From contig JBDRJK010000021.1 in the NCBI GenBank assembly GCA_043814985.1, positions 32,001 through 96,000 on the forward strand: DNA of 64,000 nucleotides. Direction: 5' to 3'. Source of the DNA: Candidatus Aenigmatarchaeota archaeon (lineage in GTDB: Archaea; Aenigmatarchaeota; Aenigmatarchaeia; Aenigmatarchaeales; Aenigmatarchaeaceae). Positions 12,001 to 21,000 of this stretch are shown in pieces. Made by a program: the position numbers. Position 1 is the first letter of the stretch. The number at the start of each line of letters is the position of its first letter.

Positions 12001-15000
12001 ACTGGTGTTATTTTAATTAATGCCGTAATGGGGTTTGTGCAAGAGCGTAGAGCTGACCAATCAATCCAAGCATTGAAAAAGATGATCGTACCCCACGCAA
12101 AAGTTTATAGGGAAGGAGAATTATTACAAATAGCTGCAAGGGAATTGGTGCCTGGTGACATTGTCTTATTGGAAGAAGGTGACAAGGTTCCTGCTGATGC
12201 AAGACTTCTAGAAATAAAAATTTTTAGGACCGTAGAAGCGTCTTTGACAGGAGAATCGCTTCCTGTTGAAAAAGACATTAAAGTATTGTCTGAAAGAACT
12301 GCTTTGGCTGATTGTAAAAACATGGTTTGGATGGGCACTTTCGTTGCAAGGGGACAGGCTAAGGCAGTTGTCACTGCAACAGGCATCAATACAGCATTTG
12401 GTAAAATAGCCCAAGACATAGAAAAAATAAAAAGAGTAAAGGGGCATTTTAAAGAAAAGACTGACAAGCTGGCAAAACAAATGGGTATTATTGCAGCTGT
12501 TGGCGCGTCAGTAACATTCATTATCGGCTTCTTTATTAGAGGTTTTGAGTTTTTAGAAATATTCCGTTTTACCTTGGCTTCTCTTGTTTCCGGGATTCCA
12601 GAAGGATTGCCCGCGGTATTGGTAATTGTGCTTTCTATTGGTGCACATAGAATGGCAAAGAAAAATGCTATCATTAGAACATTGCCATCAACAGAAACAC
12701 TTGGTGTAGTAACAGTCATTATGACAGACAAGACGGGAACACTTACGGAAAATACTATGAATGTGGAAAAAATAATTTTGCCGAATGAAACTGAGATTAC
12801 AGTGTCTGGAAAGGGCTGGATACCTTCTGGAAGTTTTTTCCAAGAAGAAAAAATTATTCATCCTTCAGGAAACCCCTCTTTAGCAAAACTTCTCGAGATT
12901 GCTGCTATATCCAGCGATGCTGAGCTTTTAAGAGAAAAAGATCGCTATGAAATTATCGGAGACCCAACTGAAGCTGCCCTTACTGTCTTAGCAGAAAAAG
13001 CAGGGATAAAAAAAGAAAAAATATTAGAAAAAGTAAAAGAAATAGACGAACTGCCCTTTAGTCAAGAATTAAGATGTGAGGCATCTCTTTTAATTTTTCC
13101 AGAAAAATCTAAAAAGAAAGAAGTTTATGTTGTCGGTGCTCCTGAAGCTATTCTCAATCATTCCGCATACGTTCTTGAAAACAATAAATGTAAAAAAATG
13201 ACTAAAAAACAGCGTGAAGATATTTCAGCTCAAGTAGAGCAATTAACAAAAAAAACAATGAGAGTTCTTGCTTTAGCCTATAAAGAAGTGCCACAACATA
13301 TAGATGGCTTATCAGAAAATTTAGTTAGTAGACTTGTTTTCGTTGGTATTGTTGGTATGAAGGATCCCCCAAGGCCAGAAGTGAAAGAAGCTATTGTCAA
13401 AGCCAAGAAAGCTGGCATTAGAATTATTATGACAACAGGAGACCATAAAGGCACGGCTGTTGCAATTGCCAAAGAAGTTGGTCTTATTGACAAAAAATCA
13501 AAAAGCAGATATCCTGAAGCTTTCACAGGCCAAGAATTATCAGAATTGTCAGAAAAGGAATTTGGAGACACAGTAAAAAATGTTTCTGTATTTGCTCGTC
13601 TAACACCAAATATGAAGTTAAGGATTGCTGAAACATTACAAAAACAGGGTCATGTTGTAGCAATGACAGGAGATGGTGTGAACGATGCACCTGCCCTGAA
13701 AAAAGCAGATGTTGGTATTGCAATGGGGATAATTGGTACTGATGTGTCTAGAGAATCTAGTGAGATTGTGCTTGCTGATGATAATTTTGCTTCTATTGTT
13801 AGTGCAATAGAAGAAGGAAGAATTGTTTTTAAAAATACCCGTCAGGCAAGTTCTTTCCTTGTCACCACCAGTTTTGCGGAAGATATAGCTATTATAACTA
13901 CAATGCTTTTCGGTCTGCCTTTGCCTCTGTTGCCCGTTCAGATACTCTGGCTCAACTTGGTCACAGATGGCGTCTCTGATGTTGCATTGGCTGCTGAACC
14001 AGGTCATGGAGATGTCTTGGAGGAAGTGCCGCGAAAATCCAAAGAGGGTATCTTGTCAAAGGAGATAATACCGTTTCTACTTTTAATGACCTGTATTATG
14101 GTCGTTTTTACGCTAGCTATTTTCAATAGTTATCTGCCTCAGGGAGAAGAGAAGGCGCGAACAGTAGCTTTTGTCGTTATGGCGTTCACCCAACTCTTTA
14201 ACGTTCTTAACATGCGTTCTCTTAAGAAATCCATTTTCAAGATAGGCTTCTTTAGCAACAGGTACATTGTCGTATCTCTGCTAATCTCAATCACACTTTT
14301 GCTTATGGTGATATATACGCCGTTTTTCCAAACCATATTCCAGTTTGTTCCATTGAGCTTTGTGGAATTATTGACGATATTCCTTCTATCGTCCACGGTC
14401 TTCTGGTTCGGCGAGCTATACAAATTTATAAAGAAGAAAATTTGATTTCGCTGTATGTTATTCTGGCAAGATAGTTAATAATAAGAACTGGTCGCAGTAA
14501 AATAAAGTTATGATACAGACTTTTTTCGCAGCCCTGTTTTTGATATTGGGGCTCTCATTCACCATACATTCGTTTTTCTACGAGAAGAAGAACCTTATTT
14601 TCATAATTGGCTTGATGGTATTCTCAATCATATCACTTTTCTACTGGTACATCTCAATACTTGTTCTGATTCTATTTACTTTATACAAGAAGTACGACTT
14701 CGGCGAGTTTGCCACGCTCAACATGTTCACTGCAGTTCTCATGGCCTGGTTTTTTTTGAATTTGTTCTTGCTGAACCTTAACATCTCCTTTTACCTGATA
14801 GCAATGGTCTCCTTGGTTGCAATGTCTTTGTTGGCCATATTCGGCATATTCGAGCAGAAGCTGAAAAAGTACATCCTGATATCAAACATAATACAGATAC
14901 TTTTTGTTGTTCTGGATTTGTCTGTCACCAAGATGCTGGGGAAGATGGGTGTCCTGAGTACCATCCAGATTTTCAACTATACATTCGCAGGCCTGACCTT

Positions 15001-18000: not shown

Positions 18001-21000
18001 GGCAGCACCACAGAGTATAGCGGAAGGAACTTGGCTCTGATGAAGATGTCAATGGTAATGAAGAGGCTGTTCTTCATTTTCCTTTTGCCTTTCCTTTTGT
18101 TCGGGAGAGATCTTATGATTCTTATACCAGCTAGTTTCGTCTTCCTGTTCATCTATGCCCTGTCACAGGCAACAACTTCCAGATACAGGGTTGATCAGGC
18201 TTTCAAGGTATACTTCTACATCATGGTACTTGTCCTGATAGATTTCATTCTGATAATGAGGGGGATAGTATGGGCATAACAACCGAGGCAATAAAGAATC
18301 TATTCAAGAAGCCCTTCACAAGAAGATATCCCAAGGAAAAATTGAAACCCTACAAGAGATTCCGCGGAAGAATCAAGTACTATCCCAAGAGGTGCATAGG
18401 TTGCAGGTTGTGCGAAAAGTACTGCCCTGTTGGTGCTGTCAAATTCCATAAGAAGGGAAAGATAGACTTTGATTTGGGAATATGCGTGACATGCGGTATG
18501 TGTCAGGATGTCTGCCCGACGCAACCTAAGTCAATAGAAATGACCAATGAGTTTGAATTTTCTAACAAGGACAAGAAAAAACTGAAAAATGTTGTAAATG
18601 AATAGGGAAAATCTTGGAGTATTGCTTGCTGTACTAACTGCCCTAGTCAGCGGTTTCTCCATAGTCGCCAACAAGTTCTTCCTAGTTTCATTAGATCCAA
18701 CTCTTTTCACAGCACTTAGAACATTTTTTGTGGGCATGGGGTTCTTCCTGATTTCATTTTATAAGAACAAGTTTAGCTTAAAGGATTTCAACAAGGTTTC
18801 TTGGAAGATGCTCTTGGCAATAGGAGTTGTTGCTGGGTTTGCTTTCCTAGCTTTCTTCAATGGATTAAAGATTACAACTGCTGGAAGGGCTGCCTTTCTT
18901 CACAAGTTATTACCACTGTTCGTTACAGTGCTAGCATTCTTCTTCCTAAAGGAGAAAATAACAAGAAAACAGGTCTATGCAATGCTTGTTATGATTCTGG
19001 GTACATACCTAATATCCTACAGTGCTATAACGTTTGATGTTGCCTTCGGGGATTTGTTGATAATTGTTGCCACGATTCTGTTTGCCGTGGAGAACATAAT
19101 GTCCAAGTACGCCATGACAAACAAGGAGTCGAATTTTGTTGTGTCATTTTGTAGAATGTTTTTTGCATCCCTTGTATTACTGTCAATTGTGTTGCTTGCA
19201 GGAAATTACGACCAGTTGCTTTTGTTGAATTATGAGCAGATATTGTATATCGGGACTTCCATTTCATTACTGTTCCTCTACGTGCTCTTCTGGTACTATT
19301 CGATAAGCCTGATAAAAGTATCAAAGGCGTCAACCCTTCTTTTGCTGTCGCCGTTCATTTCCCTGTTCATGTCATTCATGTTGTTGGGAGAAGCTTTTTT
19401 GCCGTTGCAGATTCTCGGTTCTGTCCTAATTCTTGTTGGGGCTTTCATTGTTTCAAGAGCTGGTTGACATTTTCGACTATTTTCCCCATCTTGCTTTTCA
19501 GCTCTTCACTCATTTCAATTCCGAAGTCAATGCTCTTTGTCTGAATCCCTATTATCTTTATTTTGGAATTGGGCAGAAACTTTTGAAGCAGGTCAAACGT
19601 TATGTTGTGGGTAGATATCACGACATTCTTTATGTCATTCAGTTCGAATGTCCTGACCTCGCCGACTTCCCCGTCAAACTGCAGAGCGTCAATAATCACT
19701 AATTCCTCGCAGATTTTCAGCTGGTCTATGAAGTTCTCAGGAGTGGTCTCTCCCTTTATTTTTTTGATGCCTTCAACATCCAGCTTATCTAGAACAATGT
19801 TTCCTATGTTGTCGTCACACTTGATGGGATTGCCGATGCTCATGACAGTTTTCATAAAATTTATTAGATGTGGTTATACTTAATTATTATATGCTTAAGG
19901 AAGATAAGATAAGATTTTTGAAAATGGCCATTTCATGCCTGAGAAAGGGAGATGATAAAAGACCTATATTCAGTCCTGATGTTCCTACAGATGAGGATGT
20001 TGAAATCATTAAGAAATCCTTGGAAACAGGGAATATTGAAGAGAATATGCTGAAGAGGTTTTTCCCGATAGCGTACAAGGGAGTTAGCGAGTATGGTTTC
20101 TTTGAATATTTTTTCTCAATACATAACATGAACATAGGCATGCTGGAAAAATACACTAAAGATAAATTGGTTGATTGGTGCACTGCCTTTCCGGGTAAGA
20201 TAGTTGATAGAAAAGAATCCAAATGGGTTGTTGAAAGATATGATGGTAAAAGAATAATCTCAGACTCGGAGGCGTATCCGGGGATAACAATTGAGAAGGA
20301 ATTAAAAATCGGGGACTTTGTCATACTTCACAGGGACAAGATTCACATGGTCTTGAATAAAGATGAATTTGAAACTGCCTTGAAATTCTATAATAAATTC
20401 AGAAATGAAAAGTAAACTATCTTCTCTTCCTTCTCTTGATTTTCTTTTTCCTCTTCTTTTTCTTCTGCTTTTTGGTCAGCCTTTTTGTTTTTGCCATGTT
20501 AAGAATATGTCAAATGAGAATATAAAATAATTTTATAAGAGGCAAAAACCATTTAGGGATATGTGTTTAATTGAGAAAGGAACTGTTCTCGAAGTTAAAG
20601 GCAAGACCGCTATTGTCAATGTTAGTGGTATGAAGAAGGAAGTCACGGTCACTGAGGATGTGGAAGTCGGTGACAGGATCAATGTTTTTCAGACTCTGGG
20701 GTTCAAAAAGTAATCTTAATTTTTGAATTTTCTAAAGAAAAAATGGTAGCGGGGGCTGGATTTGAACCAGCGACCTTCGGGTATCTCATCAGAGATTATG
20801 AGCCCGACGGGCACTCCTGGCTGCCCTACCCCGCTATGTTCTAATAATAAGATGTTAAAAGTTATATAAGCTTTTCTTACAATGCCATCAGTATTATTCC
20901 CAACAGCATGAAAACAGAGCCTAGCACGCGCTGCAGTACATTGCCTTCCTTGAAGAACTTGAAACCGTAGAACGAACCGATTAGTATGCTTGTTCTCTTG

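Follow-up and report, generated by a model that had tools for sequence, protein, structure and literature searches.

How might a [NiFe] hydrogenase be matured in an archaeon without HypD, HypE and HypF, the three proteins whose genes are thought essential for building the iron–cyanide–carbonyl centre? The question is raised by a 64,000-nucleotide (nt) stretch of contig JBDRJK010000021.1 (the window; all coordinates are window positions) from a Candidatus Aenigmatarchaeota genome, G000, that is 91% complete at 808 kb. The region 14510–20713 holds an operon of overlapping genes, mbhH′ (truncated)-I-J-K-L-M-N-EamA, and, beside it, the genes for a HycI protease, for g00913 (a long HypC of 174 aa) and for a 50-aa HypC, here termed mini-HypC (Table 1). 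The Hyp-less hydrogenase and the conserved trio of permease, long HypC and mini-HypC together point to an undescribed way of maturing a [NiFe] enzyme.

A conserved group 4 hydrogenase operon

Our re-annotation places the genes where a preliminary description of this DNA had put them, including the 50-aa HypC that starts Met-Cys. The operon is larger than the six subunits described there: it has seven hydrogenase genes, the one for a 56-aa membrane protein having been missed, and it also includes the EamA permease gene, which overlaps mbhN by 8 nt. The 56-aa gene, in the mbhI position, overlaps its neighbour on either side by 4 nt, and family searches with its product gave no match. The MbhH-like subunit corresponds to a C-terminal half only, aligning with residues about 274–483 of 6u8y_X and 6cfw_H, and is kept in nine relatives at 45–78% identity. 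The same contig carries the archaeal core genes for PCNA, GINS, aIF2-alpha and SMC.

Table 1 Genes of the hydrogenase operon and those beside it
Feature	Position	Strand	Evidence
MbhH-like antiporter-type membrane subunit, 294 aa	14510..15394	+	PF00361 23.7 bits, profile positions 128-289
Single-pass membrane protein, 56 aa, mbhI position	15391..15561	+	kept in 8 relatives
Hydrogenase small subunit, MbhJ/NuoB-like, proximal [4Fe-4S]	15558..15986	+	PF01058 113 bits
MbhK/NuoC-like subunit	15958..16275	+	PF00329 72 bits
[NiFe] large subunit, MbhL-like, group 4, 392 aa	16259..17437	+	PF00346 223 bits, PF00374 73 bits
MbhM/NuoH-like membrane subunit	17425..18279	+	PF00146 180 bits
MbhN/NuoI-like 2x[4Fe-4S] subunit	18270..18605	+	Fer4 families; TIGR01971 83 bits
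EamA/DMT-family permease, final operon gene	18598..19467	+	PF00892 151.6 bits
HycI-type maturation endopeptidase	19445..19855	-	TIGR00072 83.7 bits (cut-off 47.45); PF01750 49 bits
Long HypC (g00913), 174 aa	19891..20415	+	helical N-domain aa 1-95 + HypC fold aa 96-174
Mini-HypC, 50 aa, Met-Cys start	20561..20713	+	PF01455 24.5 bits, under cut-off 28.5

Both metal-binding motifs of the large subunit are present as described, DPCFSCMER at aa 359–367 followed by 25 residues and RICGICSAAH at aa 69–78 (not 68–77, as first given). Their general forms, R[IV]CGIC..AH and DPCF.C.ER (L1/L2), are invariant in ten genomes of six genera. No [NiFe] or Fe-S ligand varies across ten genomes, Cys18, Cys21, Cys85 and Cys115 of the small subunit included, and the D..IDA..STH residues of HycI are likewise invariant; the MbhN/NuoI-like subunit has two CxxCxxCxxxC motifs with eight cysteines. 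Ratios of dN/dS lie between 0.08 and 0.34, with 0.083–0.097 for the large subunit, 0.13–0.18 for HycI, 0.09–0.12 for EamA and 0.10–0.18 for mini-HypC, compared with 0.09–0.11 for RNase HII, a housekeeping neighbour. A large subunit is found in 14 of the 21 family genomes, reproducing the earlier count, and comprises 11 orthologues at 55–100% identity and three distant matches at 26–27%. Judged by its sequence, the hydrogenase with its C-terminal extension and protease is intact, under selection and looks functional.

The best solved relative of the large subunit is Pyrococcus furiosus MbhL (6cfw_L; E 3.7e-70, residues 10–367), and the gene order H-I-J-K-L-M-N is identical to that of the P. furiosus MBH (6cfw). 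In the alignment, the last residue of the 6cfw_L chain falls on Arg367 of the window protein, consistent with C-terminal processing of the latter. In contrast to the P. furiosus complex, the window operon lacks the MbhA–G (Mrp-type) module, its MbhH-like subunit is shortened to 294 aa, and it carries a permease gene. Thermococcales have HypA–F.

Absence of HypD, HypE and HypF

HypD (PF01924) had no match at E ≤ 1 in any of the 21 family genomes, G000 included, and none in the 42 genomes of the order. For HypE (TIGR02124) and HypF (TIGR00143) no family genome exceeded the cut-off: the top HypE scores were 59.6 (G019) and 55.3 bits (G007), and matches to the HypF model were confined to acylphosphatase, Sua5 and Kae1 pieces standing alone; both proteins are likewise absent from all 42 order genomes. 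Custom hidden Markov models built from the HypD and HypE of the phylum found nothing in six-frame G000 (best E 0.41 and 0.6). These repeated searches agree with the absence first reported for the family, and extend it to a genome in one contig, titled chromosome (G299, also L195), which has the hydrogenase and the cassette and in which no HypD, HypE, HypF zinc finger or HydG was found. True HypA occurs in two of the 21 family genomes (G005 and G002), not in G000, and HypB in none over cut-off.

The pattern had been taken for a peculiarity of the family; in fact, hydrogenase without HypD is phylum-wide. Among 371 Aenigmatarchaeota genomes, 157 have the large subunit and 11 have HypD, at 381–494 bits, scores that show the HypD model to work in this phylum. 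Only ten genomes have both, leaving 147 of the 157 hydrogenase genomes without HypD, including 15 order genomes at least 90% complete and the one-contig genomes G248, G270 and G299. The absence of HypD, HypE and HypF is therefore real, and the organism and most of its hydrogenase-bearing relatives in the phylum have lost all three.

A permease and two HypC-like proteins

The g00913 reading frame opens with a GTG at 19870, and the ATG listed in Table 1 is the likely start. Its AlphaFold2 (AF2) model (pLDDT 93) contains a complete HypC fold in residues 96–174, to which two HypC structures align, 2z1c_A with Z 5.8 and 2ot2 with Z 5.5, and a 95-residue helical domain that matches no known fold (best Z 3.9). 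Exactly four residues are invariant among 21 long-HypC sequences from across the phylum at about 20% identity: Cys16 and His78 in the N-domain, and Cys97 and His147 in the HypC domain. We propose these four as a putative metal site. Cys97 aligns with Cys2 of HypC; its internal position, where every studied HypC has an N-terminal cysteine, counts against a scaffold role.

Earlier, g00913 had been suggested as a new scaffold invented in this lineage. The invariant residues lend support to the scaffold; the restriction to one lineage does not hold, as the N-domain occurs in 118 of the 371 genomes of the phylum, other DPANN groups have it too, and g00913 is divergently related to Pfam DUF6390 (PF19927). 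That family is matched by 12 of the 21 long-HypC relatives (best E 2.2e-5), not by g00913 itself, and its models, at 244 positions, exceed the 174 aa of g00913, whose Atlas model superposes on a DUF6390 cluster over 162 residues (TM 0.73). Searching for DUF6390 by name, we found no paper. Mini-HypC lacks the C-terminal helix and has Gln at the HypC His position; its MC, G7, G37-D38 and F43-Q44 are invariant in seven genomes.

The long-HypC N-domain follows the hydrogenase: it is present in 112 of the 157 large-subunit genomes and in only 6 of the 214 others, an association that a Fisher test overstates because the genomes are kin. It is missing from nine of the ten genomes holding both HypD and hydrogenase and from 10 of the 11 with HydG, the exceptions being G310, where the N-domain accompanies HypD, and G065, where it accompanies HydG. 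In 26 of the 157 hydrogenase genomes no module of the three (HypD, cassette, HydG) was detected; one of these is the family genome G003 (91% complete), which has the operon and HycI with no N-domain or EamA match.

Short HypC, long HypC and EamA follow one another in this order, their genes overlapping, at 16 of 20 phylum loci. EamA orthologues adjoining long HypC are 45–52% identical across the phylum. All five further N-domain genomes have the orthologue, at 49–54% identity and adjacent to the N-domain gene, whereas none was found in five HypD-type, five HydG-type or five hydrogenase-free genomes (best matches 21–26% identity). Eighty orthologue loci, in genomes titled Aenigmatarchaeota, Woese-, Pace-, Nano- and Micrarchaeota, among others, have an N-domain gene in 70 cases and a large subunit in 37 (within 8 kb); no HypD or HypE was found within 8 kb of these loci, and no HypD in five whole genomes from the set. 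This coupling of a permease to g00913 across DPANN, and its absence from the HypD- and HydG-type genomes tested, favours the suggestion of uptake from outside. We found no literature on the trio.

A proposed maturation route

There is, in our judgement, an even chance that the permease/long-HypC/mini-HypC cassette stands in for HypDEF and that the window hydrogenase works as a minimal, membrane-bound Mbh-type group 4 enzyme, probably re-oxidizing ferredoxin by making H2. What the analysis shows is which genes are present, how well they are conserved, which are missing and which occur together; the biochemical steps that follow are inferred. The EamA permease would import or handle some small molecule beyond the cell's own synthetic capacity, perhaps a precursor of a ligand or an iron unit already assembled; we know of no DMT/EamA transporter that carries metal complexes or cyanide. 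Long HypC would hold the iron unit between the thiolates of Cys16 and Cys97, with His78 and His147 beside them, and mini-HypC would pass it to the large-subunit precursor. Nickel would enter without HypA or HypB in G000, and HycI, by analogy, would remove the 25-residue tail after Arg367.

In the canonical HypCD scaffold, Fe(CN)2CO is held by Cys2 of HypC and Cys41 of HypD with HypD histidines nearby, according to PMC11565642, which names GFETT as a conserved HypD motif. Compared with this scaffold (E. coli; T. kodakarensis, 3vyr), both window HypC-like proteins keep the HypC fold and the iron-binding Cys, and the second invariant Cys and two His of long HypC could copy the two-thiolate site within a single chain. 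The second Cys would come from the helical domain and the HypC-type Cys is internal; with no HypD in the genome, which also lacks HypE and HypF, the system has neither the [4Fe-4S] cluster nor any of the conserved motifs of HypD.

No CN- or CO-making enzyme was found in G000, where the HydG model had no match and none of the 15 radical-SAM reading frames scanned, out of 17, was HydG- or HydE-like; this leaves a gap at the chemical core of the scheme. A parallel exists in the archaeal [FeFe]-hydrogenases without HydE/F/G, found in DPANN and other archaea, for which an alternative pathway has been proposed in the portion of Greening et al. 2024 (PMC11216029) available to us. There too a hydrogenase bearing its active site is kept without its known maturases, but the enzyme is [FeFe], not [NiFe]; the same portion treats [NiFe] maturation as more complex and Hyp-dependent and reports no Hyp-less [NiFe] enzyme. 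We hypothesize that the cassette represents the first Hyp-independent route to a [NiFe] site.

Alternative explanations

A minor but credible possibility is that the cassette is an accessory only, for example in iron or nickel handling, sensing or quality control, and that CN and CO are made in the cell by unrecognized enzymes. Many proteins of G000 are unassigned, and some of its 17 radical-SAM genes resemble SPASM 'metalloenzyme maturases' below cut-offs; stand-alone acylphosphatase, Sua5 and Kae1 are the domain relatives of HypF, and among the 21 family genomes acylphosphatase matches are confined to those with hydrogenase. The N-domain does co-occur with HypD or HydG in G310 and G065, yet together with EamA it is nearly exclusive with both; moreover, no HypE-like dehydratase was found in G000, and an 808-kb genome offers little room for a multi-enzyme pathway.

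There is an outside chance that the metal centre of the complex contains no Fe(CN)2CO, being simpler or of another kind, and that the complex is a ferredoxin-driven ion pump or other redox enzyme, not a true hydrogenase. Complex I and MBS, both relatives of group 4 hydrogenases, have taken on other functions, MBS (6u8y_L) is among the large-subunit structure matches, and no known ligand-making enzyme was found. However, the known derived complexes lost the [NiFe] cysteines, C-terminal extension and maturation proteins, whereas here purifying selection has kept the four cysteines, the extension, the metal ligands of HycI and HypC-type proteins bearing the iron-binding Cys.

Still more doubtful is supply by a host, through cell contact, of the missing general maturases or of a HypCD-type complex already loaded. 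In E. coli the isoenzyme-specific components are the HypC-like proteins and HycI, and HypD/E/F and HypA/B are shared; the former are retained here and the latter lost, as expected if the symbiont had kept only its own chaperones and endopeptidase. Aenigmarchaeota are predicted to be symbionts lacking many pathways (PMC8407114), which favours this reading. Such protein transfer is not known, however, and would leave unexplained the dedicated, highly conserved permease coupled to the chaperones; the occurrence of the same cassette in many DPANN groups also counts against it.

That HypD, HypE and HypF exist in these organisms and are missing from the assemblies through gaps in binning or assembly is highly improbable, for although most genomes are bins (42–98% complete) and genus g126 has hypCDE in one genome (G274) and not in nine others, the HypD-less hydrogenase genomes include the near-complete and one-contig ones noted above, and hypCDE, where present, lies on ordinary contigs, twice on the hydrogenase contig (G091 and G259).

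A third module with HydG and HypC–HydE

G000 and its family differ from organisms using the HydG/HydE radical-SAM route to the Fe(CO)2(CN) of [FeFe]-hydrogenases in lacking both enzymes. Elsewhere in the phylum, 11 genomes have a true HydG (512–587 bits; cut-off 312), and no [FeFe] hydrogenase was found in the five HydG-type genomes tested. HydE carries a fused HypC domain at the six loci inspected, which come from five HydG genomes and G270. Together these observations hint that [NiFe] enzymes can draw on ligand sources other than Hyp.

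An intact [NiFe] hydrogenase locus

The [NiFe] hydrogenase operon comprises eight plus-strand genes with consecutive overlaps of 4–29 nt, as seen in ORF listings and family scans. By family matches its group 4 subunit set is complete, with the small-subunit cysteines kept and the antiporter-like subunit truncated, and its gene order is the same as H-I-J-K-L-M-N of the Pyrococcus furiosus MBH hydrogenase module. The preliminary description was right to see a hydrogenase operon here; its six subunits become seven hydrogenase genes with the 56-aa membrane protein, and it left out an EamA-family permease gene. 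Among solved structures, the large subunit is closest to P. furiosus MbhL (6cfw_L; E 3.7e-70). The MbhL chain stops exactly at the residue aligned with Arg367, beyond which our protein runs 25 residues further. Hydrogenases of groups 4 and 3b have been reported from Aenigmarchaeota in a publication whose accessible part leaves Hyp genes unmentioned (PMC8407114).

The locus is common to nine relatives, giving alignments of ten genomes. Invariant in these are the two large-subunit CxxC motifs, in the window protein RICGICSAAH (L1, aa 69–78) and DPCFSCMER (L2, aa 359–367), the FRRK motif of the large subunit's C-terminal extension and the four small-subunit cysteines of the proximal cluster. The endopeptidase HycI scores 83.7 bits on TIGR00072 (cut-off 47.45), and its residues at DD..GN, IDA and STH, which we take to be the three metal-binding positions (Asp/Glu, Asp and His), are likewise unchanged across the ten genomes. 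The 50-aa protein near the end of the locus, a mini-HypC, has a Met-Cys start that is invariant among the aligned relatives. The low pairwise dN/dS values (0.08–0.10 for the large subunit) exclude a decaying relic, a caveat that had been attached to the complex. Archaeal core genes lie in the remainder of the window, so the hydrogenase does not lie on a stray contig. Directly upstream of the operon are two P-type cation ATPases and a Na+/Ca2+ exchanger, and this P-type ATPase neighbourhood is conserved in relatives.

Features of the hydrogenase locus and of related loci. Positions are window coordinates unless a locus or contig is named; dN/dS values are pairwise.
Feature	Position	Strand	Family or remark	dN/dS
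Antiporter-like subunit, 294 aa	14510–15394	+	PF00361; C-terminal half of MbhH/NuoM-type proteins only	
56-aa membrane protein	15391–15561	+		
NuoB-like small subunit	15558–15986	+	PF01058	
NuoC-like subunit	15958–16275	+		
[NiFe] large subunit, 392 aa	16259–17437	+		0.08–0.10
NuoH-like subunit	17425–18279	+	PF00146	
2x[4Fe-4S] subunit	18270–18605	+	NuoI-like; Fer4 families	
EamA-family permease	18598–19467	+	PF00892	0.09–0.12
HycI endopeptidase	19445–19855	-	TIGR00072	0.13–0.18
Long HypC (g00913), 174 aa	19891–20415	+	ORF opens at 19870; likely start 19891 by comparison with relatives	0.24–0.34
Mini-HypC, 50 aa	20561–20713		Met-Cys start	0.10–0.18
RNase HII			Housekeeping neighbour	0.09–0.11
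P-type cation ATPases, Na+/Ca2+ exchanger	8002–14445		ATPases (878 and 904 aa) transcribed in opposite directions	
Aminoacyl-tRNA synthetase paralogues	22718–27256		452, 448 and 435 aa	
Six successive ORFs	1–4280		169–294 aa	
HypC-HydE fusion (genome G272)	L118:3429–4715	-	Pair also at L117, L119, L120, L121, L123	
HydG (genome G272)	L118:2045–3424	-	Follows the fusion	
HypA	L030 (G005:C9:5278–5661)		84–91 bits for the two HypA proteins	
HypA	L031 (G002:C2:152782–153168)			
PurM-superfamily ORF	L017 (G019:C15:17644–18375)		331–333 aa for the two ORFs	
PurM-superfamily ORF	L018 (G007:C81:11086–11823)			
Stand-alone acylphosphatase	C5:15093–15338		Example from the source genome	
Carbamoyltransferase	L104:4240–5169	+	Upstream of cassette	
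Carbamoyltransferase	L102:6448–7368	-	Upstream of cassette	
Radical-SAM cluster	G000:C14:37807–57068		Seven B12-binding paralogues, 433–500 aa	

Absence of HypD, HypE and HypF

The source genome (G000; 808 kb in 21 contigs, 91.2% complete, 0.9% contaminated) gives no match to the HypD model PF01924 at E ≤ 10, and HypD is missing from all 21 family genomes and all 42 order genomes, 15 of which are at least 90% complete. The same model matches 11 of 371 phylum genomes at 381–494 bits and the search can therefore see HypD in this phylum, where the gene sits in hypC-hypD-hypE(-hypF) clusters and twice shares a contig with the hydrogenase. None of the 21 family genomes has HypE above the TIGR02124 cut-off, and G000 gives no match at all; for HypF (TIGR00143) the count is again 0 of 21, the matches being stand-alone acylphosphatase, Sua5 and Kae1 only. 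HMMs trained on HypD and HypE sequences of the phylum itself detect neither protein in the six-frame translation of G000, with best E-values of 0.41 and 0.6, respectively. The reported lack of HypD, HypE and HypF stands. Of the 371 genomes of the phylum (Candidatus Aenigmarchaeota/Aenigmatarchaeota), 157, belonging to 82 of the 170 genera, encode a [NiFe] large subunit (PF00374), and only 10 of these 157 encode HypD.

The nickel-insertion genes HypA and HypB are also scarce. HypB (TIGR00073, a search outside which Mrp/MinD-type HypB falls) is above cut-off in none of the 21 family genomes. True HypA is found in two of them, G005 and G002, and in G002 it shares a contig with the hydrogenase operon, some 14 kb away; G000 lacks it, its best match (E 0.0068) falling inside a 217-aa ORF. 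Where surveys, in their available portion, note missing HypA/B, HypCDEF is still found (PMC9431212).

Some partial matches deserve mention. Two PurM-superfamily ORFs of the family score 55–60 bits on the HypE model (cut-off 252). Stand-alone acylphosphatase ORFs of 91–105 aa match the HypF N terminus in 10 of the 14 family genomes with a large subunit (11 with a short fragment in G008) and in 0 of the 7 without one. A split HypF made of acylphosphatase, Sua5 and Kae1 was considered; lacking HypE and HypD as partners, it could not carry the known chemistry to its end, and it is kept as a lead only.

A long HypC with four invariant residues

The AlphaFold model of g00913, the long HypC (30 sequences; pLDDT 93, pTM 0.88), shows a five-helix N-domain (aa 1–95) followed by a beta-barrel and helix (aa 96–174). 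It superposes on HypC 2z1c_A with Z 5.8 and an rmsd of 2.5 Å over 70 aa, and its residues 96–174 align with residues 1–78 of the E. coli HypC chain 2ot2 (Z 5.5), which makes Cys97 the counterpart of HypC Cys2. In a Foldseek search of the PDB, the whole model had no match at E ≤ 0.001, with HypC chains heading the list at 2–5e-3. The N-domain modelled alone (pLDDT 86.8) finds a best chain at Z 3.9, hence no recognised fold, a result that does not imply a novel one. Both proteins fall below the HypC family cut-offs: 21.1–21.2 bits for g00913 and 24.5 bits for the mini-HypC on PF01455 (cut-off 28.5), and 12.6 and 16.6 bits on TIGR00074 (cut-off 48). A cysteine directly follows the initiator methionine in the mini-HypC; in g00913 the cysteine is residue 97. 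Complex prediction for the two proteins scored 0.06 against a mark of 0.32, which speaks neither for nor against pairing.

A PF01455 search of 198 genomes revealed a recurrent pair of a short HypC and an adjoining 170–200-aa ORF with a HypC-like part. Aligning 21 such long proteins from across the phylum, which are 19–27% identical to that of G000, leaves only four invariant columns: C16, H78, C97 and H147. In the canonical HypCD complex, as the accessible part of one account has it, the Fe(CN)2CO unit is held on two thiolates, HypC Cys2 and HypD Cys41, with HypD histidines close by (PMC11565642). Two invariant cysteines and two invariant histidines, one pair per domain, would give the long HypC the look of a self-contained Fe(CN)2CO carrier, judging from the alignment. 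DUF6390 (PF19927) is matched by 12 of the 21 aligned proteins (best E 2.2e-5) and not by g00913 itself, whose Atlas model resembles a DUF6390 cluster at TM 0.73.

We had at first taken g00913 for a narrow family, since a sequence search returned only close relatives (at least 44% identity), and it had been described as lineage-specific. Profile searches show a wide family instead. A profile of the N-domain alone detects it in 118 of 371 phylum genomes and 62 of 170 genera, in ORFs of nearly always about 130–280 aa. Run against 1.84 billion representative proteins, it picks up hundreds of further clusters (384 at E ≤ 0.001), almost all of 90–226 aa. The domain is present in 112 of 157 hydrogenase genomes of the phylum (~71%), in 6 of 214 genomes without a large subunit, in 1 of 10 genomes with HypD and hydrogenase (G310) and in 1 of 11 genomes with HydG (G065); these genomes are kin, and the counts are descriptive, with no statistical test attached. 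Another 26 of the 157 hydrogenase genomes, including G003 of the family, have none of the three modules that we distinguish, namely the HypD type, HydG with a HypC-HydE fusion, and the long HypC with EamA.

The permease belongs to the cassette

The EamA permease scores 151.6 bits on PF00892, with both of its repeats above cut-off. At 16 of 20 phylum loci, ORF clustering shows the order short HypC, long HypC, EamA with overlapping stops and starts, and this cassette is often kilobases distant from the hydrogenase. Its EamA is 45–52% identical to that of the window, whereas its long HypC is only ~20% identical; the nearest EamA paralogue within G000 is 29% identical. Five of five further N-domain genomes have an EamA orthologue adjoining the N-domain gene (49–54% identity), and none was found in five hydrogenase-free family genomes, five HypD-type genomes or five HydG-type genomes, where the best matches are 21–26% identical.

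A scan of species genomes with an EamA alignment yielded 130 relatives, of which we kept 80 (46–78% identical), from records titled Aenigmat-, Woese-, Pace-, Nano-, Micr-, Alti-, Undin- and Nanohal-archaeota. Within 8 kb of EamA lie an N-domain gene at 70 of these 80 loci, a large subunit at 37 and HypD or HypE at none; HypD is also missing from the whole genomes of five such loci out of five. The permease therefore belongs to a cassette with the long HypC and the HypC, tracking the hydrogenase and avoiding HypD and HydG. In two related genomes an aspartate/ornithine carbamoyltransferase, a type of enzyme that binds carbamoyl phosphate, is encoded directly upstream of the cassette.

A HydG-associated module

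Hydrogenase genomes without HypD include some with a different pair of genes. One product is a 423–434-aa protein beginning MCYAIPGRV, in which a HypC domain is joined to HydE (TIGR03956, 260–288 bits; cut-off 254.6); the gene that follows encodes a true HydG (TIGR03955, 585–587 bits; cut-off 312). Eleven of the 371 phylum genomes have HydG above cut-off, every one of them with a [NiFe] large subunit, and an [FeFe] hydrogenase was found in none of five HydG-type genomes tested. One locus of the pair has archaeal RadA and Mre11 genes on its flanks. The fusion and HydG may provide a HydG-fed route to the [NiFe] centre.

All three modules occur in genus g126: hypCDE in G274 (L060), HydG in G272 (L118), G273 and G275–277, and the N-domain in G269, G271 (L114) and G278. 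This looks like repeated swapping of one module for another, an argument for a common purpose of all three. In G310, G274 and G353, the contigs with HypD had seemed to be bacterial contamination, given their PorE-, GldE- and BamB-like flanks. We withdrew this reading because a GldE/CNNM-like gene lies near both the G274 hypCDE cluster and the HydE/HydG pair of G272, in the same genus, so that the flanks are not decisive.

How the cofactor might be obtained

We consider it about an even bet that the cassette of permease, long HypC and mini-HypC stands in for HypDEF. The long HypC would then be an iron scaffold or carrier and the mini-HypC a shuttle, and the permease would supply something that the cell cannot make. 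If the cassette works as proposed, there is a second route by which the [NiFe] cofactor is made or acquired, its biosynthesis joins the list of symbiont dependences, and three genes become a handle for [NiFe] enzymes in foreign hosts. With so few parts involved, the question can be put to a direct test.

An accessory role for the cassette, with the ligands made inside the cell by an unrecognised route, seems somewhat unlikely to us; against it, the N-domain hardly ever shares a genome with HypD or HydG (one exception each). Searching G000 for a source of CN and CO, we scanned 15 of its 17 radical-SAM ORFs with NCBIfam models (the set excluding C14:49509–50918 and C15:36584–37504) and found none that is HydG- or HydE-like; a HydG model was also negative. 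The scanned ORFs include nine B12-type, three SPASM, Tes, NrdG, AmmeMemoRadiSam and MtaB-like proteins.

A more specific form of the proposal for the cassette, which we think unlikely, is that DPANN archaea mature their [NiFe] hydrogenases with an imported unit: EamA would import it, the 2Cys/2His long HypC capture it and the mini-HypC deliver it. The cargo would in that case be a pre-formed organometallic iron unit that neighbours or hosts have made, or the cyanide/carbonyl precursor of that unit; one candidate is a HydG-type synthon, a cysteine-bound Fe(CO)x(CN)y. Were such salvage true, the phylum would have three interchangeable cofactor routes (Hyp, HydG with HypC-HydE, and salvage), all within genus g126. 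That the complex instead carries a different metal centre strikes us as decidedly improbable, and we see a slim chance that the host supplies the maturases themselves. Loss of the Hyp genes to assembly gaps is barely credible: among the three hydrogenase genomes that are single contigs (G248, G270 and G299), G299 (L195, titled chromosome) has hydrogenase and cassette and no HypD, HypF zinc finger or HydG, nor any HypE above cut-off.

A literature search, supplements and subscription journals aside, returned no report on Hyp-less [NiFe] hydrogenases (DPANN included), on HypC-HydE fusions or on DUF6390. Archaeal [FeFe] hydrogenases without HydEFG are a parallel case in print, as described in the accessible part of that report (PMC11216029).

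Other observations

Within 20 kb of its 808-kb genome, G000 carries seven B12-binding, HpnJ/BchE-like radical-SAM paralogues, with two more radical-SAM genes interspersed, one of SPASM type. The window opens with a run of six ORFs without a Pfam match at E ≤ 1e-8, and downstream of the hydrogenase locus it contains a tandem of three class II aminoacyl-tRNA synthetase paralogues of the Asp/Lys/Asn type.
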